Of a stretch of 53,239 bases of DNA, positions 316-44,567 are shown piece by piece. Position numbers and translations under genes: made by a program. The stretch covers positions 1 to 53,239 of the forward strand of contig DASTAR010000024.1 in assembly GCA_035712505.1 (NCBI GenBank), given 5' to 3'. This DNA comes from Solirubrobacterales bacterium (GTDB taxonomy: Bacteria; Actinomycetota; Thermoleophilia; Solirubrobacterales; 70-9). A model generated the notes under the pieces. It saw only the letters and a program-made list of their open reading frames with translations. It had not been told where the DNA came from and searched no databases. Numbering within the stretch: position 1 is the first letter of the stretch; each line of letters starts with the position of its first letter.

Positions 316-1071
316 ATGCCAAGAATCACCCCGTCCCGGCTTGCCGCTGCGTGCGCGCTGGCCATCACTCTCTCCATGGCCCTGGCCGCGGGCGCTACGG
401 CCGCCGGCTTCAAGGCCGAGCTGCGCGTCGTCGGCAGCGGCGGCAAAGTGCTCGCCGAAAAGCCGGTCGCGACCGCGACCACCACGGTCAAGACCGACCC
501 CAAGGCCGAATGCTTCGGCAAGGGCTCCGGCGGCAGCGGCAACCCGGTCACGATCAAGGGCAACACCGCGATGGGCCTGCTCGCCCGCGCCTCCAAGTCG
601 ACCCCGGCGCTGAGCCCGCTCTCGATCAGCGACAGCTTCGACTTCGGCCTGGCGCTCTGCGGGGTCGGGCGGAGCGTCGCCAAGGGCAGCTCGTCCTGGT
701 ACCTGAAGGTCAACCACAGGTCGCTTTCGGTGGGCGGCGACGTCGCGAAGATCCACTCGGGCGACGAAGTGCTCTACGCGCTGGTCAAGACCGAAGCGCC
801 GAGCTACAAGTACCCCGAAGAGCTGGTGCTGAGCGGGCCGGGCACCGCCAGGGCCGGCGTGCCGTTCCCGGTGCGTGTCCTGTCCTACGACGAAAAGGGG
901 AAGAGCAAGCCGGCGGCCGGCGTGAAGGTCACGGGCGCGAGCGCGCCGACCGGCGCCGACGGCCGCACGATGGTGACGCTGAACAAGCCGGCGCAGCTGA
1001 TGGCGACCGGGGCGGGGGAGATCCCCTCGGCCCGCGAGCCGGTCTGCATCGGCCGCAAGTGCCCGAAGTGA
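316..1071 (+). CDS. Secreted DUF4430-like protein (transcobalamin beta-domain-like)
   Basis: N-terminal signal peptide (LAAACALAITLSMALAAGATAAG). DUF4430-like pattern (NTAMGLL...SSSWYLKVNHRSLSVGGDVAKIHSGDEVLY). First gene after the riboswitch. Confidence 0.75.
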   Translation: MPRITPSRLAAACALAITLSMALAAGATAAGFKAELRVVGSGGKVLAEKPVATATTTVKTDPKAECFGKGSGGSGNPVTIKGNTAMGLLARASKSTPALSPLSISDSFDFGLALCGVGRSVAKGSSSWYLKVNHRSLSVGGDVAKIHSGDEVLYALVKTEAPSYKYPEELVLSGPGTARAGVPFPVRVLSYDEKGKSKPAAGVKVTGASAPTGADGRTMVTLNKPAQLMATGAGEIPSAREPVCIGRKCPK

Positions 1072-1087
1072 CGGGGCGCGACCCGAG

Positions 1088-2050
1088 ATGACCCCTCGCC
1101 GTGGCACGGCGGCTGCGATCGCGCTGCTCGGAGCAGCGCTCGCGGCCGCCGGCTGCGGCCTCGGCCCCGGCGTCGACGTCGGCTCGGTCGAGCTGACGGT
1201 GACGCGTGAATTCGGTCGTGAGCCGGTGCTGCAGCGCTCGCTGCAGGCGAAGGAATCCGACACGGTGATGCGGGCGACCGAAGCGAACGCCGAGGTCGAG
1301 ACCCGCTACGGCGGCGGCTTCGTCCACTCGATCGACGGCACCGCCGAGGGCGAACACGGCGGCGATCCCTACGACTGGTTCTTCTTCGTCGACGGAGTCG
1401 AGTCCCCCGTCGGCGCCGCCGAAGTCGACCTGAAGGGCGGCGAGCGCGTCTGGTGGGACTACCGCGACTGGTCGGCGACGAACCACGTCCCCGCGGTGGT
1501 CGGCTCCTGGCCCGCGCCGTTCGTCGACGGGGTGGCGGGGAAGCACTACCCGGTCGTGGTCGATTGCGCGAACGCAAAGCGTGGTTCCTTTGTCCGGCTA
1601 TACCGGACAAAGGAACCACGAGCTGCTTGGGGTGCCGCTTGCGCCCAGGTGCTGGCGGCGCTGGAACGCGAAGGGGCGGCGCTTGCGCCGGGCTCGGCCA
1701 AGAGCGCGATCCGCGTTCTCGTCGGGCCTTGGGACCGCCTGCGGCAGGATCCGGCGGCACGGTTGGTGGAAGACGGCCCTGCGGAAAGCGGGATCTACGC
1801 GGACTTCAAGGGAAATGATCTCGTGGCGTTGGACGAAGCCGGGAACGAGGCGCGCACCCTCGGCCCACACGCAGGCCTCGTCGCAGCGACGAGCCGCTAC
1901 GGCGGGCCGCCGGTATGGCTGGTCACCGGCGGGACGGCGGCGGCGGTGCGAGCAGCCGCAGGCGCAATGGACGAGCAGCACCTGCGCGACCATTACGCGG
2001 TGGCGATCGAACACGGACACGAGATGCCGCTGCCGGAAGCGGGGCGATGA
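1088..2050 (+). CDS. DUF4430 lipoprotein carrying an in-frame Family A palindrome
   Basis: Lipobox LAAAGC. Clear DUF4430 signature (YGGGFVHSIDG...DWFFFVDGVESPVGAAEVDLKGGERVWWDY). Its stop overlaps the next start (ATGA at 2047-2050). Confidence 0.8.
   Translation: MTPRRGTAAAIALLGAALAAAGCGLGPGVDVGSVELTVTREFGREPVLQRSLQAKESDTVMRATEANAEVETRYGGGFVHSIDGTAEGEHGGDPYDWFFFVDGVESPVGAAEVDLKGGERVWWDYRDWSATNHVPAVVGSWPAPFVDGVAGKHYPVVVDCANAKRGSFVRLYRTKEPRAAWGAACAQVLAALEREGAALAPGSAKSAIRVLVGPWDRLRQDPAARLVEDGPAESGIYADFKGNDLVALDEAGNEARTLGPHAGLVAATSRYGGPPVWLVTGGTAAAVRAAAGAMDEQHLRDHYAVAIEHGHEMPLPEAGR
1581..1619. repeat. Family A palindromic element, copy A1 (perfect 17-bp arms, loop ctata)
   Basis: gtggttcctttgtccgg (1581-1597) and ccggacaaaggaaccac (1603-1619) are exact reverse complements. 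Sits inside CDS 1088..2050 and is translated as KRGSFVRLYRTKEP. Confidence 0.95.
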
Positions 2051-3006
2051 GGTCGTCGTTCGCTTACAAGCCGCAGCGGGGCCCGCTGCAGGATGCCTCG
2101 CCGGGTGCCGCCGTCGCCTACCTCGGCGCGATTGTCGCCGTCGCCTTCCTCTACCTCAACCCGCTGATCCTGCTTGCCGCCGGCGTCGCGGCGGCGCTGG
2201 CCGGTGCCCTCGCCGGCGCGAGCCTCGCCGTGCGGTCGGGATTGCGGATGGGGCTTTCGCTGTTCCTGCTCGTGACCGTGGTCAACGCCCTGGTCACGAG
2301 CCGGGGGGAGACCGTGGTGGCGCGGCTGGGCCACTGGCCGCTGCTGGGGCGGGTCGACGTCACCCTCGAGGCGGTCGTCGCCGGCGTCTCCTACGGCCTC
2401 ATCGCGGCGGCGACGATCGTCGCTTTCGCCGTCTACTCCGCCTGCGTGGACCCGGATCGCGTCCTGCGGGCAATGCGCCCGATCGCGGGGCGCTCGGCGC
2501 TCACCGCGACGCTGGTCTCGCGCCTGGTCCCGGTCGCCGCCGCCGACGCCGCCCGGCTGCGCGATGCGGCCACCCTGCGCGGCCCCGGCGCCGCCCCAGT
2601 CGGCAAGGGGCCGCTGGCGCGCCGCCTGCTCGCCGGGTCCCTCGACCGGGCCGTCGACGTCGCCGCCACCCTCGAGCTGCGCGGCTACAGCCTCGACGCT
2701 CCCCGCGCCCGCAACCGCCGCTCCCGTTCCCGCTACGACCGGCGCTTCTACGCCGCCGCCGCAGCCGTCCTCTTCACCGCGATCGCCGGCAAGCTCCTGG
2801 GGGCCGACGACTTCCAGGCCTACCCGGCGATCACGATCGGCCTCGGCCCCGCCACCTTTGCCGTTGCGGCAGTGGTCCTCCTCAGCGGCCTCGCACCCCT
2901 GAAGCGTTCGGCACGCCGCAAGAGGCCTGCCGACGGGACGAAAACGGGCCTATATAGATCGAAATCGTCCCGTCAGCGGATGAAGGAGGCGGCGGCGCGT
3001 GTCTAA
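2047..3006 (+). CDS. ECF transporter transmembrane (T) component, CbiQ/EcfT family
   Basis: Multi-TM protein with an Arg-rich cytoplasmic segment (AARLRDAATLRG...LDRAVDVAATLELRGY) typical of EcfT/CbiQ. Coupled to the upstream gene by ATGA. Its 3' tail runs through repeat B1. Confidence 0.75.
   Translation: MRSSFAYKPQRGPLQDASPGAAVAYLGAIVAVAFLYLNPLILLAAGVAAALAGALAGASLAVRSGLRMGLSLFLLVTVVNALVTSRGETVVARLGHWPLLGRVDVTLEAVVAGVSYGLIAAATIVAFAVYSACVDPDRVLRAMRPIAGRSALTATLVSRLVPVAAADAARLRDAATLRGPGAAPVGKGPLARRLLAGSLDRAVDVAATLELRGYSLDAPRARNRRSRSRYDRRFYAAAAAVLFTAIAGKLLGADDFQAYPAITIGLGPATFAVAAVVLLSGLAPLKRSARRKRPADGTKTGLYRSKSSRQRMKEAAARV
2927..2980 (+). repeat. Family B hairpin element, copy B1
   Basis: ccgacgggacga ... 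tcgtcccgtcagcgg inverted arms around the loop aaacgggcctatatagatcgaaa. Near-identical copies lie at 7571-7623 and 19538-19590. Confidence 0.9.
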
Positions 3007-4687
3007 GCTGGCGATCAGGCGGGGGGCGGCGCCAGCGCTTGTGGTAGGGGGTCTGAGTTACTCGTATCCGCAGGGACTGCAGGGCGAGGACGCGGCCCCG
3101 AAGCGGGCGCTGGAGGGCGTCTCGCTCGAGGTGGCGCCGGGGGAGTTCGTGCTCCTCGCCGGCCGCTCCGCCTCTGGGAAGTCGACGCTGCTGAAAGCCG
3201 CCTGCGGGCTGGTGCCCCACTTTCACGGGGGCGAGGTCGAAGGCGAGGTGCGCGTAGCCGGGATCGACGCGCTCGGGGCCGGCCCGGCCGATCTCGCCGC
3301 CGCCGTCGGATACCTCGCCCAGGATCCGGAGACGCAGGTCGTCTCGACCACCGTGGCCGCCGAGATCGAGCTGCCGCTGGAGATGCGCGGCGAAGCGCCT
3401 GCCGCCCGCGCCCGCGCCGTCGAGGAGGTGGCGCTGGCGCTGGCGATCCCGCACCTTCTGGACCGCGCCGTCGACACCCTCTCCGGAGGGGAGCTGCAGC
3501 GCGTCGCCCTCGCCGCCGCCCTCGTCACCCGCCCGCGCCTGATCCTCCTCGACGAGCCGACCTCCCAGCTCGACCCGGTCGCGGGCGACGAGCTGATCTG
3601 GCTGCTGCGGCGCCTCAACGAGGAGTGGGGGGTGGCGGTCCTGCTCGCCGAACACCGGCTGGAGCGGTGCCTGGCGGCGGCGGACCGGGTGGTGGCGATG
3701 GAGAAGGGCGGCGTTGCCTTTGACGGGTCGCCCGCGGATTTTTTGGCGTGGTCGCATGAGAGCGATGCTGCCCTCTCGACCCCCGCCGCGCGGCTCTTCT
3801 CGCTCGCCGAGATAGAGCCGCTGCCTGTGGGCGTCCGCGATGCACGACAGACGCTGCGGAGGACGGGGATCGCGCACCCTCCGACTCGCTTGGTGAGGAG
3901 GATGCGCGATCCCCGTCCTGCCGACGCGGTCTTGAAGTCGAACGACCTTTGGGTCGAGCTCGACCGCGGGGACGAGCAGCGCGACGTGCTGCGCGGCATC
4001 GACCTCGAGGTGAGGCCGGGCGAACGAGTCGCCTTGATGGGACGTAACGGCGCGGGTAAGTCGACGCTGTTGCGCGCCGCAGCGGGGTTGCATGAGCCGG
4101 TCGCGGGGAAGATCGAGGCCGAGTCGATCGCTCTCCTCACCCAGAATCCGAGTGACTACCTCGTCCGCGAGCGGGCCGGTGATGAGCTGCCCGGGGAGGA
4201 GGGGATGGCGGCGTTGCGAATGGTCGGCCTCGAGCACGCGGTCGACGCCGATCCACGCGACCTCTCGGGCGGCGAGCGACAGCGCTTGGCGCTGGCGATC
4301 GCGTTGGCGGGCCGAATGAGCGGCGAGCAGCTCCCGAGCCTCGTCGCTCTCGACGAGCCCACCCGTGGGATGGACCGCGCGCGCAAGGAGGAACTCGTCG
4401 CGCTGATTGGCGCCCTTGCGGAGGATGTCGACTTAGTTACCCATGAGGTAACTAAGTCGACAGGCCCCGCAGCGGTCGTCGTCGCAACCCATGACGTCGA
4501 GTTCGCCGCCGCCTGCGCCGAGCGCGTGGTCCTCTTGGGCGAAGGCGTCGTCATCGCCGACGGGCCGATGGAGGAGATCCTCTCGGGCGGCTGGTACTTC
4601 GCGACCGAGGTCGCGCGGGTGCTCGACCTGCCGGGGGTCGTCACGCCCGAGCAGGGCGCGGCTGTCCTGAAGGAGGCGCTGGGATGA
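2999..4687 (+). CDS. Fused double ABC ATPase of an ECF transporter (EcfA1-EcfA2/CbiO-like)
   Basis: Two ABC cassettes. Walker A GRSASGKST with signature LSGGELQR; Walker A GRNGAGKST with signature LSGGERQR. GTG start preceded by gaaggagg (2982-2989). Confidence 0.9.
   Translation: MSKLAIRRGAAPALVVGGLSYSYPQGLQGEDAAPKRALEGVSLEVAPGEFVLLAGRSASGKSTLLKAACGLVPHFHGGEVEGEVRVAGIDALGAGPADLAAAVGYLAQDPETQVVSTTVAAEIELPLEMRGEAPAARARAVEEVALALAIPHLLDRAVDTLSGGELQRVALAAALVTRPRLILLDEPTSQLDPVAGDELIWLLRRLNEEWGVAVLLAEHRLERCLAAADRVVAMEKGGVAFDGSPADFLAWSHESDAALSTPAARLFSLAEIEPLPVGVRDARQTLRRTGIAHPPTRLVRRMRDPRPADAVLKSNDLWVELDRGDEQRDVLRGIDLEVRPGERVALMGRNGAGKSTLLRAAAGLHEPVAGKIEAESIALLTQNPSDYLVRERAGDELPGEEGMAALRMVGLEHAVDADPRDLSGGERQRLALAIALAGRMSGEQLPSLVALDEPTRGMDRARKEELVALIGALAEDVDLVTHEVTKSTGPAAVVVATHDVEFAAACAERVVLLGEGVVIADGPMEEILSGGWYFATEVARVLDLPGVVTPEQGAAVLKEALG
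4427..4461. repeat. Unique 35-bp perfect palindrome (15-bp arms, loop catga) inside the ATPase CDS
   Basis: gtcgacttagttacc (4427-4441) and ggtaactaagtcgac (4447-4461) are exact reverse complements. AT-richer than its surroundings. Translated in frame as VDLVTHEVTKST. Confidence 0.95.
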
Positions 4688-6723
4688 GCTGGCAGCTGAC
4701 GAGCTTCGTCATCCTCGGCCTCGTCCTCCTCGGCGGCTTCGCCTGGTACGAGCGCTCGCGGCCGCCGTCCCAGGTGGTCGCCCTGGTGGCGGCCCTCGCG
4801 GCGCTGGCGATCGCCGGCCGCATCGCCTTCGCCGCCTTCCCCAACGTCAAGCCGACCACCGACATCGTCGTCTTCGCCGGTTACGCCCTCGGCGGCGCCC
4901 CGGGCTTCGCCGTCGGCGCCCTCGCCGCGCTGGTCTCCAACTTCTGGTTCGGCCAGGGACCGTGGACGCCGTGGCAGATGGCGGGATGGGGCCTCTGCGG
5001 GATCGTCGGGGCGCTGCTCGCCCTCGGCACGCGCAACGCGGGCCGCTTCGGCCTCGCCGCCATCTGCGGGTTTGCAGCCGTTTTGTACGGGGCTCTGCTG
5101 AACTTCTCTTTGATGGCGACCTACGGGGCAGACCTGTCGTGGAAGCAGTTCTGGCTGCTCGAGGGGCGCGCGGTGCCGTTCGAAGTCGCCCACTTCACCG
5201 GCAACGTCGTCTTCGCGCTGGTCGCCGGGCCGGCGATGGTGCGGATGCTCGTCCGCTTCCGGGAGCGTTTCGAATGGCAGCGGTGCTCCCCGACGGAGAC
5301 TCCGAGGGACCCCGGTCGCGGCTTCGGCGGCGCCCTGCGCAGCGGCGGCGTCGCGGCGCTGCTCCTCGTCCTCCTTGCCGGGGTCTCCGCGCCGACCGCC
5401 CACGCGGACGCGGCCGGAGAAGCCGCTTCCGTCGGTCGCGCCCTGCACTGGCTCGAAGCGCAGCAGCGCCCGAGCGGCGGCTTCGCCGCCGACAGCAGCC
5501 GCGAACCCGGCGCCGAAATCACCTCCTGGGTGATGCTGGCCCTCGCCGCCGCGGGACGTAATCCCCTCGACGTGGCAAAGGACGGCAAGACGCCCGTCGA
5601 TTTCCTCCGCTCCCACGCGGACGAAATCAAGGACGCCGGCGACGTCGCCCGCACGATCCTCGCCCTGGAGGTCGCCGGAGCCGACCCCCGCCAGTTCGCC
5701 GGCGAAAACCTCGTCGCCCGCCTGCTCGCGCAGCGGCGGCAGGACGGCTCCTACCAGGGCTGGCCGGCGACCAGCGCCTACGCGGTGCTGGCGCTGCGGG
5801 CGGCGGGTGCGAACGACGCGACTGCGGCGACCGTCGACTGGCTGCGCAAGGTGCAGGGCAAGGACGGCGGCTGGGGGAACGAACCCGGCGACCCCAGCAC
5901 CTCCGAGATCACCGGCGCCGCCCTGCAGGTGCTGGCGCCGGGGTCGGAGGCCAGCGAACGCGCGCTCGGCTACCTGCGCGAGGCGAAGCGGCGCAACGGC
6001 GGCTTCGCGCCCGGCAACAACCTCGAAGCCAACGCCCAGGCGACTGCCTGGGCCTGCGAGGGGCTGCTGGCGGCAGGCAAGGACCCGGCGGACTTCGGCT
6101 CGGGCAAGAGCTCGCTCGCCTACCTGCGCGACCTGCAGGCCAGCGACGGCCACTTCCTCCAGGCGCCGGGGCAGGAAGCCTCCCCGGTCTGGGTGACCGC
6201 CGACGTCCTCGTCCCCCTCGCCGGCGCCCACCTGCCGATCTCGGCGCCGCCGCGCCAGCCAAAACCGTCGAGTAACCCGGACAGCCACGGCACCCCCTCC
6301 GCGTCCAGCGGGGGGGTCCTGCCGTCGAGCGTCCCGCCGTCGAGCGTCCCGCCGTCGAGCGTTCCGTCCACCGGCACCCCGCCGCCGAGCTCCGGCCAGA
6401 CCCCGCTGGAATTCCTCGAACAGGTCGAAGAAGGTGGAAGCGGCGCGACGGGAGGTTCGGCGCCCTCCGGCGACGGAGGGCAGGGCGTGAAGCCCCCGGG
6501 CATAGCTGGCGGAGGTCAGCTCCCCCAGGAAGCCATCACCCCAGCTCCCGCCCCGGAAACCCCGCTGCCGAGCGAGGCATCCGGAGAACCGGCCTCCGAA
6601 CCGACCGAAGGGTCGAGCAGCACCGCCGGCGCGATCGTCCTCGGTCTCCTCGTCGGCTGCGTCCTCTTCGGCCTCGGCCTGGCGGCCCGCAGGGGCTGGA
6701 TGCACTGGCGCTACGGCCTGTAA
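4684..6723 (+). CDS. Fusion protein: ECF S-component-like membrane domain + prenyltransferase/terpene-cyclase-repeat (alpha/alpha toroid) domain + Pro/Ser linker + C-terminal TM anchor
   Basis: N-terminal ~200 aa has 5-6 TM helices (NVKPTTDIVVFAGYALG motif). The middle has repeated QxxDGG(F/W) motifs (QQRPSGGF, QRRQDGSY, QGKDGGWG, KRRNGGF, QASDGHF). The C-terminus has a TM helix (AIVLGLLVGCVLFGLGLAA). ATGA overlap with the ATPase gene. Confidence 0.75.
   Translation: MSWQLTSFVILGLVLLGGFAWYERSRPPSQVVALVAALAALAIAGRIAFAAFPNVKPTTDIVVFAGYALGGAPGFAVGALAALVSNFWFGQGPWTPWQMAGWGLCGIVGALLALGTRNAGRFGLAAICGFAAVLYGALLNFSLMATYGADLSWKQFWLLEGRAVPFEVAHFTGNVVFALVAGPAMVRMLVRFRERFEWQRCSPTETPRDPGRGFGGALRSGGVAALLLVLLAGVSAPTAHADAAGEAASVGRALHWLEAQQRPSGGFAADSSREPGAEITSWVMLALAAAGRNPLDVAKDGKTPVDFLRSHADEIKDAGDVARTILALEVAGADPRQFAGENLVARLLAQRRQDGSYQGWPATSAYAVLALRAAGANDATAATVDWLRKVQGKDGGWGNEPGDPSTSEITGAALQVLAPGSEASERALGYLREAKRRNGGFAPGNNLEANAQATAWACEGLLAAGKDPADFGSGKSSLAYLRDLQASDGHFLQAPGQEASPVWVTADVLVPLAGAHLPISAPPRQPKPSSNPDSHGTPSASSGGVLPSSVPPSSVPPSSVPSTGTPPPSSGQTPLEFLEQVEEGGSGATGGSAPSGDGGQGVKPPGIAGGGQLPQEAITPAPAPETPLPSEASGEPASEPTEGSSSTAGAIVLGLLVGCVLFGLGLAARRGWMHWRYGL
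6321..6365 (+). repeat. 3 x 15-bp tandem repeat encoding (L/V)PSSV units
   Basis: gccgtcgagcgtccc occurs twice, then gccgtcgagcgttcc. Encodes PSSVPPSSVPPSSVP in the linker of CDS 4684..6723. Confidence 0.9.
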
Positions 6724-7570: not shown

Positions 7571-7623
7571 GTGCCGACGGGACGAAAAGGGGCCTATATA
7601 GACGGAAATCGTCCCGTCGGCGG
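7571..7623 (+). repeat. Family B hairpin element, copy B2
   Basis: gtgccgacgggacgaaaaggggcctatatagacggaaatcgtcccgtcggcgg. Lies between the nitroreductase stop (7567) and the glpD start (7629/7632). Confidence 0.9.
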
Positions 7624-10194: not shown

Positions 10195-10233
10195 CTCCGA
10201 ACTTCGCCTCGCAATAGCGAGGTCAACGTCGGA
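10195..10233. repeat. Family D nested hairpin, copy D1
   Basis: ctccga-acttcg-cctcgc-aata-gcgagg-tcaacg-tcgga. Fills the convergent gap between stops at 10194 and 10239. A related copy lies at 11611-11650. Confidence 0.7.
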
Positions 10234-11610: not shown

Positions 11611-11650
11611 ACTCCGAGCTTGACCCCGCCATAGCGAGGCGAATCTCGGA
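11611..11650. repeat. Family D hairpin, copy D2
   Basis: actccgagcttgaccccgccatagcgaggcgaatctcgga shares actccgaRctt, atagcgagg and tcgga blocks with D1. Also lies in a convergent stop-to-stop gap (11606/11655). Confidence 0.6.
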
Positions 11651-19537: not shown

Positions 19538-19590
19538 TGCCGACGGGACGAAAACCGGTTACATGGACCGGTAATCGTCCCGTCAGCAGA
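19538..19590 (+). repeat. Family B hairpin element, copy B3 (variant loop)
   Basis: gtgccgacgggacgaaaaccggttacatggaccggtaatcgtcccgtcagcag. Same outer arms as B1/B2. The loop carries its own accggt...accggt stem. Located in the mraZ-rsmH spacer. Confidence 0.9.
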
Positions 19591-38049: not shown

Positions 38050-39459
38050 GTGACCCGCTACACCTCCGCGACCCCCGACGACCGGGAGGAGATGCTCGAT
38101 GCGATCGGCGTCTCCGCGGTCGACGAGCTCTTCGAGCAGATCCCCGAGCCGCTGCGGTTGGGGCGGCCGCTGGCGCTGCCGGAGGGGATGGGCGAGGCCG
38201 AGGTCTACGAGCGGCTGGCGGGGCTGGCGGCGCGGAACGCGGACGCCGAGGAGCAGGTGTGCTTCGTCGGCGCCGGGATGTACGACCACTACGTGCCGGC
38301 GATCGTCGACGCGATCACCTCGCGCAGCGAGTTCCTGACGCCCTACACGCCATACCAGCCGGAGATCTCGCAGGGCGGCCTGCAGGTGATGTTCGAGTTC
38401 CAGACGGCGATGTCGGAGCTGACCGGGCTGCCCGTCTCGAACGCCGGGTTGTACGAGGGGCCGTCGTCCGTGGCTTCGGCCGGCTACCTGGCGATGGGCG
38501 CGACCAAGCGCAAGCGCTTCGTCGTCTCCCGCGGCGTCCACCCGCACAGCCGCGAGACGCTGCGGACCTACTCGGTCGGCTACGGCGCCGAGGTGGTCGA
38601 AGTAGGGCTCGCGGGCGGGTCGACCGATGCGGCAGCGCTGGCCGGGGCGGTCGACGACGAGACCGCCGCGGTCTTCCTGCAGAGCCCCAACTTCCTCGGC
38701 GCGGTCGAGGACGTCGCCGCGCTCGGCGCGGCGGCGAAGGAGCACGGGGCGCTGCTGGTCGTCGCCTGCGACCCGATGACCTTGGGGATCCTCAAGCCGC
38801 CGGGCGAGTGCGGCGCCGACATCGCCCTTGGCGAGGGGCAGCCGCTGGGCAACCGCCTGGACTTCGGCGGCCCTTCGTTCGGCTTCTTCTGCGCAACCGA
38901 GGCGGAGATTCGGCGCATGCCGGGACGGATCGCCGGCGAAACCGAGGACGTCGACGGGCGCCGCGGCTTCGTGCTGGCGCTACAGACGCGCGAGCAGCAC
39001 ATCCGCCGCGAGAAAGCAACTAACAACATCTGCACCGCCCAGGCGCTGAACGCGCTCGGGGCGATGGTCCACCTGGCCTGGCTCGGGCGCCAGGGCTTCC
39101 GCGAGCTCGGCGAGCTGCTGATCCAGCGGACCGCGTACGCGCGCGAGCGGCTGGCTGCGGTCGACGGGGTCGAGCTGCTGCACGAGGAGCCGGTCGCCCG
39201 CGAGTTCGCGGTCCGGCTCGACGCTCCCGTCGGCGACGTCCTCGACCGCGTAGCCGAGCGCGGGATCGCCGCCGGCTACCCGCTCGGCCGCGACTACCCG
39301 GAGTTCGAGGACGGCCTCCTGGTCGCGATCACCGAGCGCAGGACGAAGGCGCAGATCGACGAGCTGGCCGAGGCGCTGGAGGCGGCGATCGGCGCAAAGC
39401 GTGGTTCCTTTGTCCGGGATGGCAGGACTAAGGAACCACAAGTCGGGGGGGCGGCCTGA
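38050..39459 (+). CDS. gcvPA: Glycine dehydrogenase (decarboxylating) subunit 1; C-terminus extended through Family A copy A2
   Basis: YTPYQPEISQGGLQVMFEFQT motif. The last ~20 codons (AKRGSFVRDGRTKEPQVGGAA) are encoded by the palindromic element and its flank. Confidence 0.9.
   Translation: MTRYTSATPDDREEMLDAIGVSAVDELFEQIPEPLRLGRPLALPEGMGEAEVYERLAGLAARNADAEEQVCFVGAGMYDHYVPAIVDAITSRSEFLTPYTPYQPEISQGGLQVMFEFQTAMSELTGLPVSNAGLYEGPSSVASAGYLAMGATKRKRFVVSRGVHPHSRETLRTYSVGYGAEVVEVGLAGGSTDAAALAGAVDDETAAVFLQSPNFLGAVEDVAALGAAAKEHGALLVVACDPMTLGILKPPGECGADIALGEGQPLGNRLDFGGPSFGFFCATEAEIRRMPGRIAGETEDVDGRRGFVLALQTREQHIRREKATNNICTAQALNALGAMVHLAWLGRQGFRELGELLIQRTAYARERLAAVDGVELLHEEPVAREFAVRLDAPVGDVLDRVAERGIAAGYPLGRDYPEFEDGLLVAITERRTKAQIDELAEALEAAIGAKRGSFVRDGRTKEPQVGGAA
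39401..39439. repeat. Family A palindromic element, copy A2 (imperfect right arm)
   Basis: Left arm gtggttcctttgtccgg (39401-39417), loop gatgg, right arm caggactaaggaaccac (39423-39439). Shares the 5' flank gcaaagc with A1. Confidence 0.9.
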
Positions 39460-40982: not shown

Positions 40983-41062
40983 GGGGCCGGGAGACCGTCC
41001 CCAGACACCACTCGCCAATGGCTCGTGGTTGAGTGTCTGGGGACGGTCTTCCGGCCCCCTAC
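40979..41062. repeat. Family E palindrome H1 (28-bp arms with one mismatch); probable bidirectional terminator
   Basis: agggggccgggagaccgtccccagacac (40981-41008) pairs with gtgtctggggacggtcttccggccccct (41033-41060). The TAG of gcvPB and the CTA (TAG on the minus strand) of the ligD-pol gene lie inside the stem. Confidence 0.9.
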
Positions 41063-41976
41063 AGTTGCGGCAAGTTCTGCTCCAGGTGGAGGACCGGGTC
41101 GAAGAGGTCGCCGTGCTTCTCGATGCGCTCCAGCACGTCGTCAGTCTCGAAGACGAGGTGGCCGCCCTTGCCTGAGTCGGCAGCCTGTTCGACCTCTTCC
41201 CAGGTGATCGGGGTCGAGCAGGTGGGGCGTTCGCGCGCTCTCAGGGAGTAGACGGAGATCGTCGTTTTGCGTTCGTTGTTCTGGTACCAGTCGATGAACA
41301 CCTTGCCGCTGCGGTCGGTTTTCTTGCCCATTTTCGCGAGGGTGTTCTCCGGGTCCTGATTGGCGACGATCTGGGCGAGCGCCTGGCCGAAGGGGCGGGT
41401 CTCCTCGTAGGAGGTCTTGGAGTTGAGGGGGACGTAGAGCTGCATGCCCTTCGAGCCCGAGGTCTTGGCAAAGCACTGGAGGTCGAGCTGGCCGAGGACC
41501 TCGCGCAGACGCAGCGCCACCCGCGCGCAGTCGACTACGTCGGCGGGCGGGCCCGGGTCGAGGTCGAAGACGAGCGAGGTCGGCCGTTTCGGCGCCCTGC
41601 TCTTCGAGAGCGAGGGGTGCAGCTCGATCGCCGCCAGCTGCGCCATCCAGATCAGCGTCGGCAGGCTGTCGCAGACGCAGAACTCGATCACGCCGGCCCG
41701 CGGCCCCGCCTGCACTTTCGCCGTCTTCACCCACTTGGGCCGGTGTTTCGGGCAGCGCTTCTCGTAGAAGGCGGCGTCGAGGTCCTCGACCCCTTCCGGG
41801 AACCGCCGCAAAGTGACCGCCCGCCCGCTCAGGTGGGGAACCAGCGCCGGCGCCACCTTGGCGTAGTAGTCGACCATCTCGCCCTTGGTGAACCCGGTCT
41901 TCGGGTACAGGACCTTGTCGAGGTTGGAGAGCTTCAGCTCCTTGCCGTCGACCTCGACCTGCTGGGTCTCGCCCAC
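41059..41976 (-). CDS. Stand-alone LigD polymerase/primase domain protein (NHEJ)
   Basis: LKLSNLDKVLYPKTGFTKGEMVDYY, RFPEG and FDLDP motifs are typical of LigD-Pol. No ligase or phosphoesterase domain is attached. Confidence 0.85.
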   Translation of the reverse strand: MGETQQVEVDGKELKLSNLDKVLYPKTGFTKGEMVDYYAKVAPALVPHLSGRAVTLRRFPEGVEDLDAAFYEKRCPKHRPKWVKTAKVQAGPRAGVIEFCVCDSLPTLIWMAQLAAIELHPSLSKSRAPKRPTSLVFDLDPGPPADVVDCARVALRLREVLGQLDLQCFAKTSGSKGMQLYVPLNSKTSYEETRPFGQALAQIVANQDPENTLAKMGKKTDRSGKVFIDWYQNNERKTTISVYSLRARERPTCSTPITWEEVEQAADSGKGGHLVFETDDVLERIEKHGDLFDPVLHLEQNLPQL

Positions 41977-41986
41977 GTGCTAGAGC

Positions 41987-42892
41987 CTATTTGGCGGTTT
42001 TGGCTTTGGAGCGCGAAGAGCTTTTCGATCTCGATTTCGAGCCCGATTTGCGCTTCGCCTTGGAGGCTTTCGATTTCGGGGCTTTCTGCGCCCCGTCGCC
42101 GCTGCCCTTCTCTTTTACTGCGGCGATCGATTCCTCCAGCGCCGCCATCAGGTCGGGGGCTTTGGTCGCCTTCGGCGCCTCGGCCTCCGGCGCGACGATC
42201 TCCTTGCCTTCGGCCTTCTGTTCGATCAGCGCCAGCAGCTGTTCGCGGTACTCGTCCTTGTAGGCCTCCGGTTCGAATTCGGTCGAGAGCGAATCGATCA
42301 GCTGCTCGGCCATCTCCTGCTCGCGCTTGGCGACTTTCGGCTTCTCGTCCGGCAGCGCGTCGTCGAGTTCGGAGGGCGGGACCACCTCGTCGTGGAAGCG
42401 CATCGTCGTCAGCGTCAGGACGCCGTCGGAGGCGCGGATCGCCGCCAGGTGCTCTTTGTTGCGGAAGACGAAGCGGGAGATCGCCGCCTTGCCCGAGCCT
42501 TCCATCGCCGCCGCCAGCAGCGAGTAGGCCTTCTCGGCGCCCTCGGCCGGGCCGAGGTAGTAGGGGCTGTCGAAGTACATGGGGTCGATTTCCTCGATGT
42601 CGACGAAGTCCTGGACGTCGATCGCCCGCGTCTTCTCCGGCGCCAGCGCCGCCATCTCGTCTTTGCTCAGCGGCACGTACTGGCCGGGCGTCAGCTCGTA
42701 GGCCCTGACGATGTTCTCGTAGGGGACCTCCTCGTCGGTTCCCTCGGCGACCCGGCGGTGTTTGATCCGGGCGCTGTCGGACTCGCGGATCTCGCGCAGG
42801 GCGATGTTGCGCCGGGCCACGGCGCTATAGAGGCGCACGGGCACGTTCAGCAGCCCGAAGCTAATGGTGCCACTCCAAATCGCTCTAGCCAT
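41987..42892 (-). CDS. ku: NHEJ DNA end-binding protein Ku
   Basis: N-terminus MARAIWSGTISFGLLNVPVRLYSA. Lys/Ser-rich basic C-terminal tail. Confidence 0.95.
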   Translation of the reverse strand: MARAIWSGTISFGLLNVPVRLYSAVARRNIALREIRESDSARIKHRRVAEGTDEEVPYENIVRAYELTPGQYVPLSKDEMAALAPEKTRAIDVQDFVDIEEIDPMYFDSPYYLGPAEGAEKAYSLLAAAMEGSGKAAISRFVFRNKEHLAAIRASDGVLTLTTMRFHDEVVPPSELDDALPDEKPKVAKREQEMAEQLIDSLSTEFEPEAYKDEYREQLLALIEQKAEGKEIVAPEAEAPKATKAPDLMAALEESIAAVKEKGSGDGAQKAPKSKASKAKRKSGSKSRSKSSSRSKAKTAK

Positions 42893-43003: not shown

Positions 43004-43042
43004 GTGGTTCCTTTGTCCGGCCATGCCGGACAAAGGAACCAC
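43004..43042. repeat. Family A palindromic element, copy A3 (perfect 17-bp arms, loop ccatg)
   Basis: gtggttcctttgtccgg (43004-43020) and ccggacaaaggaaccac (43026-43042). Ends 3 nt before the fetA-like ATG (43046). Confidence 0.95.
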
Positions 43043-43045
43043 GCG

Positions 43046-43720
43046 ATGGGGGATGATCCGCCGGTGCTCTTCGAGCTTCGGGACGTGGGGCTGGACCGCG
43101 GCGGCAAGACCGTCCTCGACTCGCTCAGCGCCGGGATCCCGGAGGGCGCGGCGGCGATCGTCGGCCCCTCCGGCGCCGGCAAGTCGACGCTGCTGCGGCT
43201 GCTGAACCGGCTCGCCGATCCCGATCGCGGCGAGATCGCCTACCGCGGCCGGCCGCTGCGCTCCTACGGACCGCTGGCGCTCCGGCGCGAGGTCGCCCTG
43301 GTCCCGCAGCTGCCGGCACTCTTGGAGGGGACGGTCGAGTCGAACCTGCGCTACGCGGCCGAGCTGGCCGGCGAGCCGCTCGAGCTGGAGCGGACGCTCG
43401 CACGCGCCGGGCTCGACTCCTCCTTCGCCGAGCGCGACGTCGAGAAGCTCTCGGTCGGCGAGCAGCAGCGGGCGATGCTTGCCCGCGCGCTGGCGCAGCG
43501 TCCCCGGGTCCTCCTGCTCGACGAGCCGACCTCGGCCCTCGACCACGCCGCCCGCGACACGATCGAGGCGGCGCTGACCGAGCTGCGGCGGGAGCTCGAG
43601 ATCTCGACCGTGCTCGTCAGTCACGCCCCCGAGCAGGCGCGCCGCCTCGGCGACTGGGTGCTGCGGCTCGAGGGCGGACGGCTCGCCGGCTGCGGCCCCC
43701 TGGCGGAGGTGCTGGCGTGA
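43046..43720 (+). CDS. ABC transporter ATP-binding protein, FetA/YbbL-like
   Basis: Walker A GPSGAGKSTLLRLL, signature LSVGEQQR, Walker B LLLDEPTSALD. Paired with a UPF0014 permease. Confidence 0.8.
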   Translation: MGDDPPVLFELRDVGLDRGGKTVLDSLSAGIPEGAAAIVGPSGAGKSTLLRLLNRLADPDRGEIAYRGRPLRSYGPLALRREVALVPQLPALLEGTVESNLRYAAELAGEPLELERTLARAGLDSSFAERDVEKLSVGEQQRAMLARALAQRPRVLLLDEPTSALDHAARDTIEAALTELRRELEISTVLVSHAPEQARRLGDWVLRLEGGRLAGCGPLAEVLA

Positions 43721-43732
43721 CCGCCTCCGCCA

Positions 43733-43769
43733 ATGGTTCCTTTCGTTCGCTCTGCGGCCATAAGGAACA
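43733..43769. repeat. Degenerate Family A-like hairpin, copy A4
   Basis: tggttccttt (43734-43743) and aaggaac (43762-43768) recall the A arms. Outer ccgcc/ggcgg pairing. Lies between the fetA-like stop and the fetB-like GTG (43776). Confidence 0.5.
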
Positions 43770-43775
43770 GGCGGC

Positions 43776-44567
43776 GTGAACACCTCGATCCACATCGCCC
43801 TCTGGCAGGTCGCCGCTTCGCTGGCGCTCGTCGCCCTCGCGGCGGCGATCTCCTTCTGGCAGAAGGCCGACCTCGAGCGCGACATCGGCGTCGCCACCGC
43901 CCGCTCGATCGTCCAGCTGACCCTGGTCGGCTACGCGATCAAGCTGATCTTCGAGGCCGACACGATCTGGCTGGTCCTGGTCCTGCTGGCGGTGATGGTC
44001 CTCTTCGGCGCGATCACCGCCCGCAGCCGCGCCAGGAAGGTCCCGGAATCCTTCCAGCCGCTGCTGATCGCCCTCGCCCTCGCCGGCGGCACCACCCTCG
44101 GCCTCGTCGTCGTCCTCGGCATCTTCGAACCGACTCCGCGCTACCTGGTGCCGGTCGGCGGCATGGTGATCGGCAACGCGATGACCGCCTCCGCCGTCGC
44201 CCTCAACCGCCTCGGCGACGAGATGGGCGACGCCCGGGCCCGCATCGAGGCCACCCTCGCGCTCGGCGCCACCGCCCGCGAAGCCGCCGCCCCGACCGTC
44301 CGCCGCTCCCTGCGCTCGGGGATGATCACCCTCGTCGACTCGACCAAGACCACCGGCCTGATCTTCTTCCCGGGCACGATGGTCGGGATGCTCCTCGCCG
44401 GCGCAAGCCCCACCGACGCCGTCCGCCTGCAGCTGATCCTCCTCTACACGCTCCTCGGAAGCGTCTCGATCTCGGCCCTCACCGCGACGGTCCTGGCGTA
44501 CCGAAACTTCTTCACCCCGGCCGCGCAGCTACGCGAACTGGAGGAGCCGGAGACCGCCGCTGCCTAG
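43776..44567 (+). CDS. ABC transporter permease, FetB/YbbM (UPF0014) family
   Basis: Polytopic membrane protein with LVPVGGMVIGNAMT and GMITLVDSTKTTGLIFFPGTMVGM motifs typical of UPF0014. Confidence 0.8.
   Translation: MNTSIHIALWQVAASLALVALAAAISFWQKADLERDIGVATARSIVQLTLVGYAIKLIFEADTIWLVLVLLAVMVLFGAITARSRARKVPESFQPLLIALALAGGTTLGLVVVLGIFEPTPRYLVPVGGMVIGNAMTASAVALNRLGDEMGDARARIEATLALGATAREAAAPTVRRSLRSGMITLVDSTKTTGLIFFPGTMVGMLLAGASPTDAVRLQLILLYTLLGSVSISALTATVLAYRNFFTPAAQLRELEEPETAAA

Follow-up and report, generated by a model that had tools for sequence, protein, structure and literature searches.

The 53,239-nt contig DASTAR010000024.1 of a Solirubrobacterales bacterium (GenBank assembly GCA_035712505.1; hereafter the window, always at its full length) carries four copies of a 39-nt palindrome, here termed family A: two perfect, one with an imperfect right arm, and one decayed. 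Family A has not been described before; it belongs with the small palindromic repeats of bacteria, akin to repetitive extragenic palindromic (REP) sequences and miniature inverted-repeat transposable elements (MITEs), and constitutes no new kind of system. That it is a dispersed repeat of this type, with copies inserted in frame into genes, is very probable. It is multicopy in many species, its hairpin is under constraint, its copies are enriched in intergenic DNA and at gene ends, its sites occur filled, empty, and decayed, and its in-gene copies exhibit a marked bias in reading frame. The explanation taken as a whole, namely, that family A is a non-autonomous repeat recognized as a hairpin and moved by a trans-acting enzyme, is the one we consider rather likely.

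Copy number and spread of family A

A search of the window with the 17-nt arm GTGGTTCCTTTGTCCGG yielded six matches at three or fewer mismatches, compared to 0.05 expected and with none of 100 shuffles reaching six; these matches pair up into three 39-nt palindromes. They bear out the two perfect palindromes (copies A1 and A3; Table 1) and the copy with an imperfect right arm (A2, two mismatches) that an earlier note on this DNA had described. The degenerate fourth copy reported there (A4) is likewise real, having five mismatches over 22 outer-arm positions at the exact 17-nt spacing, a combination that Markov-1 random sequences produced 0.00 times per window (100 trials), although its span runs from 43733 to 43771 rather than to 43769. 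As also reported, A1 and A2 have a common 5′ flank, CGCAAAGC, and are translated in one element frame (AKRGSFVR..RTKEP) as AKRGSFVRLYRTKEP and AKRGSFVRDGRTKEP. The description of the element as lying in frame inside a gene holds for A1, which is internal to its host; in contrast, A2 and the 17 nt after it encode the last 20 residues of GcvPA (KRGSFVRDGRTKEPQVGGAA), and A3 is intergenic.

Table 1. Coordinates in the window of the family A copies and the coding features associated with them
Feature	Position	Strand	Description
Copy A1	1581..1619		Perfect 39-nt palindrome with 17-bp arms and 5-nt loop CTATA; translated in frame as RGSFVRLYRTKEP within the DUF4430 lipoprotein open reading frame (ORF)
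Copy A2	39401..39439		Perfect left arm, 2 mismatches in right arm
Copy A3	43004..43042		Perfect palindrome with 17-bp arms and 5-nt center; intergenic, in the divergent ku/ABC-ATPase region
Copy A4	43733..43771		Decayed, ATGGTTCCTTT-N17-TAAGGAACAGG; flanked by the stop of the ABC ATPase gene (43720) and the GTG start of the UPF0014 permease gene (43776)
54-nt segment, 18 codons AKRGSFVRLYRTKEPRAAW	1575..1628	+	Core of A1 extended by 6 nt at its left end and 9 nt at its right end; missing from element-free orthologs
Host ORF of A1	1088..2050	+	Lipoprotein with DUF4430 domain at aa 58–125; insert between invariant Cys160 and Cys185
Host ORF of A2, gcvPA	38050..39459	+	GDC-P domain ends at aa 442; stop overlaps the gcvPB start at 39459 (TGA/ATG)

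Beyond the window, a scan for the 17-mer across one genome per species (596 Gb) found at least 106 stretches. Among the matches listed, approximately 80 loci derive from at least 29 species represented by metagenome-assembled genomes (MAGs) of Solirubrobacterales, Conexibacteraceae, or "uncultured Actinomycetes," all with a second arm 5–11 nt away, and at least nine loci come from one MAG. The 23 listed matches in unrelated taxa consist of one arm only, roughly in line with the ~70 chance matches to a 17-mer that we calculate for 596 Gb. A second scan, of metagenome contigs and with the outer 11 + 11 bases fixed and the inner 17 free, located family A on at least 120 soil metagenome contigs. 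The earlier expectation of copies outside the window is thus borne out. In the source soil metagenome (X1), the summed contig depth reaches ~270–410 over the element compared to 6–8 on its flanks (~50-fold), and the source assembly's own contigs stop inside A1. As far as seen, the family appears confined to the order Solirubrobacterales. (In what follows, loci are labeled by L and a number, and proteins by P and a number.)

A palindrome constrained as a hairpin

The core measures 39 nt in 112 of 113 copies, with an 11-nt center between 14-nt arms. The outer arms (GTGGTTCCTTT/AAAGGAACCAC, 11 bp) are invariant in sequence, whereas the inner stem of 5–6 bp is free to vary in sequence while retaining complementarity, and a single strand folds into a hairpin of 16–22 bp. 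Semi-conserved flank information (RTYSC/GSRAY) reaches 5 nt past each end, making the whole unit ~49 nt long. GTTCC, ATCGC, ATCCC, AAGTC, and GTTGC are the main flank classes, and the left and right flanks of the same copy are more complementary to each other (2.06 mismatches) than are shuffled pairs (2.42 ± 0.11).

Among 124 copies unbiased for the inner 17 nt, positions 12–16 pair with positions 24–28 through varied combinations, such as GTCCG/CGGAC, CGGTC/GACCG, TGCAC/GTGCA, TTGAC/GTCAA, and others. Formal covariation was counted over a 22-pair hairpin in 126 copies picked regardless of their inner 17 nt. Paired cells make up 86.6%, as opposed to 77.6 ± 0.5% in shuffles; cells changed on both sides number 303 versus 164 ± 10; and the covariation score of 0.234 exceeds both that of shuffled sets (0.105 ± 0.006; reached in 0 of 500) and that of registers slid by 1–3 columns (0.087 or less). 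Every inner pair is realized by two to four types of Watson–Crick pair. Since single contigs (L110, L185) carry copies with differing inner stems, the inner stem is constrained as structure and the outer 11 bp as sequence, and the covariation of the inner stem implies that intrastrand pairing matters.

In which nucleic acid this pairing takes place is informed by composition, energetics, and the nature of the mispairs. A + T content is 58% in the loop, most commonly TATAG, compared to 26% in the inner stem and ~30% in the genome. The predicted RNA hairpins of A1 and A3 have free energies of −35.1 kcal/mol (z −9.8) and −37.4 kcal/mol, respectively, and the predicted DNA hairpins −24 and −25 kcal/mol. 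A structure selected in the transcript would be expected to accumulate G·U pairs on the sense strand, and no such enrichment is present among 139 copies oriented by local transcription direction, whose non-Watson–Crick cells comprise 26 G·U and 40 C·A. Given the lack of a G·U excess, the perfect two-fold symmetry, and the AT-rich center, the constrained pairing points to DNA, as a single-stranded hairpin or a cruciform, rather than to sense RNA, and effects on RNA remain compatible with it.

Insertion into genes and choice of reading frame

The coding copies provide direct comparisons between filled and empty sites. Of the 120 closest orthologs of the DUF4430 lipoprotein (69–87% identity), 73 contain the peptide (K/S)RGSF-x6-(T/Q/R)KEP(R/Q)VAW and 47 lack exactly those 18 residues, the empty orthologs reading CxGG|GxAC at the site, between two invariant cysteines. 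At the DNA level, filled alleles (the window, L109, and L024) and empty alleles (L107 and L108) differ by 54 nt, L108 and L109 being otherwise very close. GcvPA orthologs end either in a short tail (..AAEREGVAA) or in one that is 13 aa longer, and the longer ones vary from almost intact (ERGDFLSDSESKAP, RGAFVRDTETKAP) to beyond recognition; in L103, a copy of A2 occupies the orthologous place with identical right-arm changes. Judged from these alignments, the coding copy in the DUF4430 gene is an insertion, and the earlier suggestion that the ~16-residue peptide had been inserted finds confirmation in both proteins. L109 and L108 supply a third comparison of this kind, at a site immediately upstream of the B12 riboswitch: an insert of 56 nt that includes a family A copy is present in L109 and absent from L108. 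Two of the inserts may be bordered by direct repeats of 4 nt (GGCG, GGGA), the alignments being ambiguous. In a neighbor-joining tree of the DUF4430 protein, filled and empty sequences interleave, requiring at least 21 changes of state; this single-protein tree is weakly resolved and is therefore used as a sign of patchiness only.

How often family A resides within genes was assessed by a strict test on 240 unique copies, which counted a copy as internal only if its ORF ran on without a stop for 180 nt or more to either side and scored as coding-like in its codons over that stretch. Thirty-eight copies (~16%) are internal to genes by this measure, and their frames are distributed very unevenly: 32 are read as (S/F)RGSF..KEPR(D/N), six as VVPL..(Q/E)RNH, and none as WFLCP..DKGTT, the third stop-free frame. 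The favored peptide, with its many G, S, K, E, P, R, and T residues, would suit a loop at the protein surface; the frame that is never used is hydrophobic. In-gene and intergenic copies have the same flank classes, and the 5-nt flanks thus travel with the element. AlphaFold2, run on an alignment of 20 sequences, gave no usable model of the host lipoprotein (mean pLDDT 34.6), and the placement of the A1 insert in a surface loop is therefore taken only from the indel pattern and the flanking invariant cysteines. Under the explanation we prefer, the window holds a loop insertion of 18 aa that is tolerated (A1), a C-terminal tail of 13 aa (A2), a copy in a 5′ leader (A3), and one in decay (A4). 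The earlier proposal, that of a mini-element which is or once was mobile and tolerates being translated, gains support from the filled and empty sites and, as regards tolerance of translation, from the 32:6:0 bias in frame; current mobility would follow by inference. Neither outcome that the earlier note had named as refuting, a lack of further copies or conservation of the peptide in distant orthologs without the palindrome, was obtained.

The fate of copies after insertion is evident in the DNA of seven filled DUF4430 orthologs. Four of them, at only 70–80% protein identity, have identical outer arms, including the codons CGT, GGT, TTT, GAA, and CCA, which are rare in these genomes with ~90% GC at third codon positions. 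In two more the arms are slightly altered, and those of L233 now read CGC, GGC, and CCG through drift. Among the filled orthologs, the inner stems are not alike (GTCCGG/CCGGAC, CGCACG/GTGCA, CGG/CCG, GTCG/CGAC), each being self-complementary, and in L109 the inner-stem variant of the in-gene copy recurs in an intergenic copy 1.5 kb away. Copies can thus decay, and many are kept or refreshed, be it through selection, gene conversion from other copies, or re-insertion.

Genomic placement and the possibility of a host signal

Gene contexts come from a gene caller of our own that scores codon usage; it was trained on the loci's long ORFs and favors starts behind AAGG/AGGA. Although the DNA is ~90% coding, intergenic DNA accounts for 85 of 109 copies, against 20 within genes and four that overlap a gene end. 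All types of intergenic region are used, with convergent regions approximately 2-fold over their share of intergenic length and 14 copies in divergent promoter regions. A stop codon lies within 21 nt in 34 of 87 cases, and intergenic copies are often found 3–20 nt from stop or start codons. Six copies end 3–4 nt ahead of a predicted start, where the right arm AAAGGAAC and a GSGATG flank resemble a ribosome-binding site followed by ATG, a count that is partly circular because the gene caller rewards AAGG/AGGA motifs.

Copy A3 exemplifies this arrangement. It is situated between ku (41987–42892, minus strand) and an ABC ATPase gene whose ATG at 43046 is 3 nt past the element, and its right arm AAAGGAACCAC with the flank GCGATG forms a Shine-Dalgarno-like motif together with that ATG. 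A3 is also in frame with the ATPase ORF, and initiation at an upstream GTG would have it translated as VVPLSGHAGQRNHA. In two other species, a family A copy occurs directly after the 3′ end of a putative tRNA gene (..GGTTCGAATCCCACCTCCGGCA; L027 ~1990–2054 and L084 ~1635–1699).

Such placement raises the question of whether family A is primarily a cis-acting RNA or DNA signal of the host that is maintained by selection, for instance, a U-tract-independent terminator, a 3′ stabilizer of mRNA, or a hairpin that hides an AAGGAA ribosome-binding site, with its spread being secondary. Many copies 3–20 nt after stops, the six that end 3–4 nt before a start, the ~2-fold enrichment in convergent regions, the retention of rare codons by copies at orthologous sites, and the stability of the RNA hairpins (−35 to −37 kcal/mol) would all be accommodated. 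A mere hairpin, however, needs no invariant 11-bp sequence; sense-strand G·U does not exceed C·A (26 versus 40); the same site can be filled, empty, or decayed; and 14 copies reside in divergent promoter regions and ~16% in ORFs. Nor is there a T-run behind the hairpin, the GSRAY flanks being followed by G/C-rich sequence with no T enrichment, and the window has no Rfam match at the element beyond spurious microRNA hairpins far below threshold. We therefore hold a host signal to be an improbable account of the family. An intrinsic terminator proper was considered and rejected, as the GC-rich hairpin is present but no T/U run comes after it.

Dimers and their spacing

About one quarter of the copies are dimeric. 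The 31 pairs fall into two spacer classes, of 31–33 nt (28 pairs) and 21 nt (3 pairs), which are approximately one helical turn apart (e.g., L019:2819–2928 and L038:7250–7348; dimers occur across L003–L229), and in four soil metagenomes these dimers show up again as "goes back" joints. Such quantized spacing may reflect a rule of distance that operates on the DNA duplex. No conserved sequence was found in the spacers, which are unrelated to one another, and they exhibit no self-complementarity (0.36 versus 0.37 in the control). Three or more adjacent units were never seen, two being the most.

Helical phasing, in combination with two invariant 11-bp half-sites, is what one might expect of a double-stranded operator bound by a dimeric protein, be it a nucleoid protein or a regulator of global reach. 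Yet the centers of the half-sites are 28 bp apart, binding to duplex DNA gives the covariation of the inner stem no role, copies are found in ORFs and after the stops of unrelated housekeeping genes, and tens of copies per Mb is high for a regulator, rendering the operator highly improbable. The geometry, a ~39-nt palindromic repeat with unrelated spacers of 31–33 nt, is also reminiscent of degenerate or miniature CRISPR arrays. Here, however, singletons predominate and at most two units adjoin, one unit is common to at least 29 species, and the copies are located in coding regions and core operons with no cas context in the window. The distribution of copies effectively refutes the CRISPR reading, to which we assign a negligible likelihood.

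Comparison with known repeat systems

The REP and bacterial interspersed mosaic elements and the REP doublets forming hairpins (REPINs) are GTAG- and CGTC-tagged palindromic repeats of Escherichia coli, Pseudomonas, Stenotrophomonas, and others (PMC3733652; PMC3116915). REP families comprise singletons and dimers 20–100 bp apart, with spacers alike in length but not in sequence, have palindromic insertion targets, and place some copies in ORFs (PMC3733652). Family A resembles them in being a short hairpin repeat (20–40 bp for REP), in its tens to hundreds of mainly extragenic copies near gene ends, in its singletons and dimers and occasional ORF copies, and in its persistence at orthologous sites. 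Its core starts with an invariant GTGG, which conforms to the REP start GT[AG]G but is base-paired to CCAC at the other end, so that both ends carry it, whereas the REP tag is one-sided and unpaired. Family A departs from REP repeats in its full symmetry and in combining an invariant outer stem with a free inner one. Moreover, a REP-associated tyrosine transposase (RAYT), as found in a REPtron, was not encountered for family A in 1.6 Mb of copy-bearing loci, and its dimer spacers, not being self-complementary, do not allow long hairpins of the REPIN type.

Rickettsia palindromic elements are 100–150 bp in length and occur only in Rickettsia. The earlier note had compared family A to them, and the analogy stands in so far as both are palindromic, insert in frame into genes, and are translated as tolerated peptides. 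They are not the closest kind, as family A is unrelated in sequence, much shorter at 39–54 nt, has ~16% of its copies in genes, and is nearer to REP in design; REP-like repeats should replace them as the reference for comparison.

Bacterial MITEs are usually 100–400 bp long, with defined target-site duplications and a recognizable parent insertion sequence (IS). The examples of Correia/NEMIS, Nezha, and ERIC resemble family A in being non-autonomous, multicopy, and built of inverted repeats, and in their capacity to supply promoters, ribosome-binding sites, or peptide segments; in contrast to the usual MITE, family A falls short of this length, and neither defined target-site duplications nor a parent IS were found for it. 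A functional analogy only can be drawn with integron attC sites, where a folded single strand is recognized, a conserved outer core surrounds a variable, structured inner stem, and the position is often after stops. Family A nonetheless has no R″/R′ core consensus (RYYYAAC/GTTRRRY), cassette arrays, or integrase context, its copies being scattered in core operons.

Database and literature searches gave no further kin. The cobalamin riboswitch is the sole match at gathering score that Rfam returned in the window, and at the element it returned only sub-threshold microRNA hairpins (32 bits, compared to a gathering score of 100). In the literature, we found neither the arm sequence in a bacterial context, nor a link between Solirubrobacterales or Conexibacter and REP elements, nor a published REP family for the order.

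How family A may be mobilized

Enzymes of the IS200/IS605 group, of the HUH type, act on single-stranded hairpins and leave no duplication. By analogy, copies of family A would arise through insertion of hairpin-bearing DNA, in which a trans-acting enzyme would recognize the invariant outer stem together with the structure of the folded strand; the likeliest candidate is a single-strand-DNA transposase of the HUH/Y1, or RAYT-like, type. Copies could land anywhere and would survive only where harmless, that is, in intergenic DNA or, if their length is a multiple of three and their frame benign, in surface loops and tails of proteins. Some may later have been co-opted, as hairpins just after stop codons or as a ribosome-binding site and start codon, as at 43004–43048. 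Mobilization by an HUH/RAYT-type enzyme in particular is put forward tentatively, at somewhat less than even chances.

Several observations weigh against this explanation. Neither of two regular-expression scans for the HUH...Y..NP motifs found a RAYT in the 1.6 Mb of copy-bearing loci, and an exhaustive phmmer search (--max) with E. coli RayT gave no hit at E ≤ 10 among 10,662 ORFs of at least 80 aa. This search set consists of ~8-kb samples around copies, and a single-copy gene elsewhere in the genomes is still compatible with the result; our assessment of the RAYT reading was nonetheless lowered, because a RAYT flanked by canonical copies in each genome should have produced a few hits. Solitary arms or a longer parent element are likewise missing from the same Solirubrobacterales loci, and no clear target-site duplication is present, only the ambiguous 4-nt repeats GGGA and GGCG at two filled sites. 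All filled DUF4430 alleles have the same 54-nt boundaries, which would fit one old insertion followed by loss or recombination better than repeated insertion, and the rare codons kept in the outer arms suggest maintenance by selection or gene conversion as opposed to neutral junk. Movement itself is deduced from states of the sequence.

Some of these points would equally suit a conventional MITE, in which the palindrome represents the two collapsed terminal inverted repeats of a DDE-type IS and is moved in trans by the IS transposase. Counted with its flanks, the unit forms an inverted repeat of ~22 nt on each side, the filled sites may carry 4-nt direct repeats, and a RAYT was not found in the 1.6 Mb. 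A transposase that binds double-stranded terminal repeats would have no need, however, for an inner half that is free yet complementary, and the AT-rich center and fixed 39-nt length better suit a hairpin substrate. In addition, that 1.6 Mb showed neither a full-length element nor an arm on its own, and the putative duplications vary in sequence and are not consistently present. We accordingly deem the conventional MITE unlikely and retain the hairpin-recognized repeat as the preferred explanation.

A more far-reaching proposal, which we regard as a long shot, is that family A and sister families of like design, with long GC-rich arms and TATA-like centers, form a long-lived, vertically inherited system of hairpin DNA in Actinomycetota, kept by one host enzyme. 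The outer stems that stay constant even at synonymous sites in diverged orthologs, the inner stems that are exchanged or compensated at one site, and the helically phased dimers point that way. If true, the system would go beyond a decaying MITE and constitute an actinobacterial counterpart of the REPIN–RAYT partnership or a co-opted cruciform site.

Other palindromic families and neighboring genes

Family A is accompanied by other palindromes. A second family of ~50 nt, TGCCGACGGGACGAAAA..CCTATATAG..AATCGTCCCGTC, whose members are 71–92% alike, occurs in the window at 2928–2979, 7572–7623, and 19538–19589; its design resembles that of family A, with GC-rich arms and a TATA-like center, and its first copy lies within the last 80 nt of the CbiQ ORF. 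A third, GTGTCTGA..CCTCCTATAGGGGG..TCAGACAC, is located at 34–79 of the window, L107:8950–8993, and L020:388–431. A pair of 38-nt palindromes at 10196–10233 and 11613–11650 (TCCGAACTTCGCCTCGCAATAGCGAGGTCAACGTCGGA), 82% complementary to each other, probably represents a fourth family.

Two insertion hot spots stand out. One, common to different families, is the site upstream of the B12 riboswitch, which is occupied by the third family in the window and L107, by family A in L109, and by no element in L108. The DUF4430 protein contains a second hot spot for in-frame 18-aa insertions ~60 residues downstream of the A1 site, which is empty in the window allele and filled in L231:1001–2017 and in the proteins of L230 and L232 and in P0032, P0043, P0069, P0088, and P0089. 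The insert in L231 is another 39-nt palindrome, GTTCGTCCTTTCCGCG-ATATA-CCGCAGGAAAAGACGAAC, translated as VRPFRDIPQEKTN.

The host operon of A1 (316–6723) is headed by a cobalamin riboswitch at 102–290 (72 bits) and encodes two lipoproteins, one of them with DUF4430, CbiQ, a double ABC ATPase, and a 679-aa ORF (4684–6723) whose counterparts in L107–L109 have faint Pfam matches to prenyltransferases and squalene cyclases. It is probably a B12 uptake system of the energy-coupling factor type. In the vicinity of A3, genes of non-homologous end joining (the LigD primase–polymerase domain and Ku; 41059–42892) adjoin a pair of genes for a FetA/FetB-like ABC exporter (43046–44567).

Implications

Much of the interest of family A resides in its split into an invariant outer and a covarying inner stem, its phased dimers, its extreme bias in frame, its apparent maintenance at synonymous sites, and the TATA-centered sister families in one genome. 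There are also practical consequences for annotation. Units of 39–54 nt break metagenome assemblies, as seen from the source contigs that stop in A1, and they lengthen ORFs, create apparent N- and C-terminal extensions, and explain length classes of 13 and 18 aa in conserved proteins. The family further amounts to a natural experiment on which protein sites and reading frames are tolerated, with its 32:6:0 distribution of frames and, here, a loop bracketed by cysteines in a putative disulfide and a C-terminal tail. With it, the range of REP-type repeats comes to include an order of soil actinobacteria that has been little studied and is largely uncultured, and if a dedicated enzyme were found, REPIN–RAYT-like systems would become testable outside Proteobacteria.

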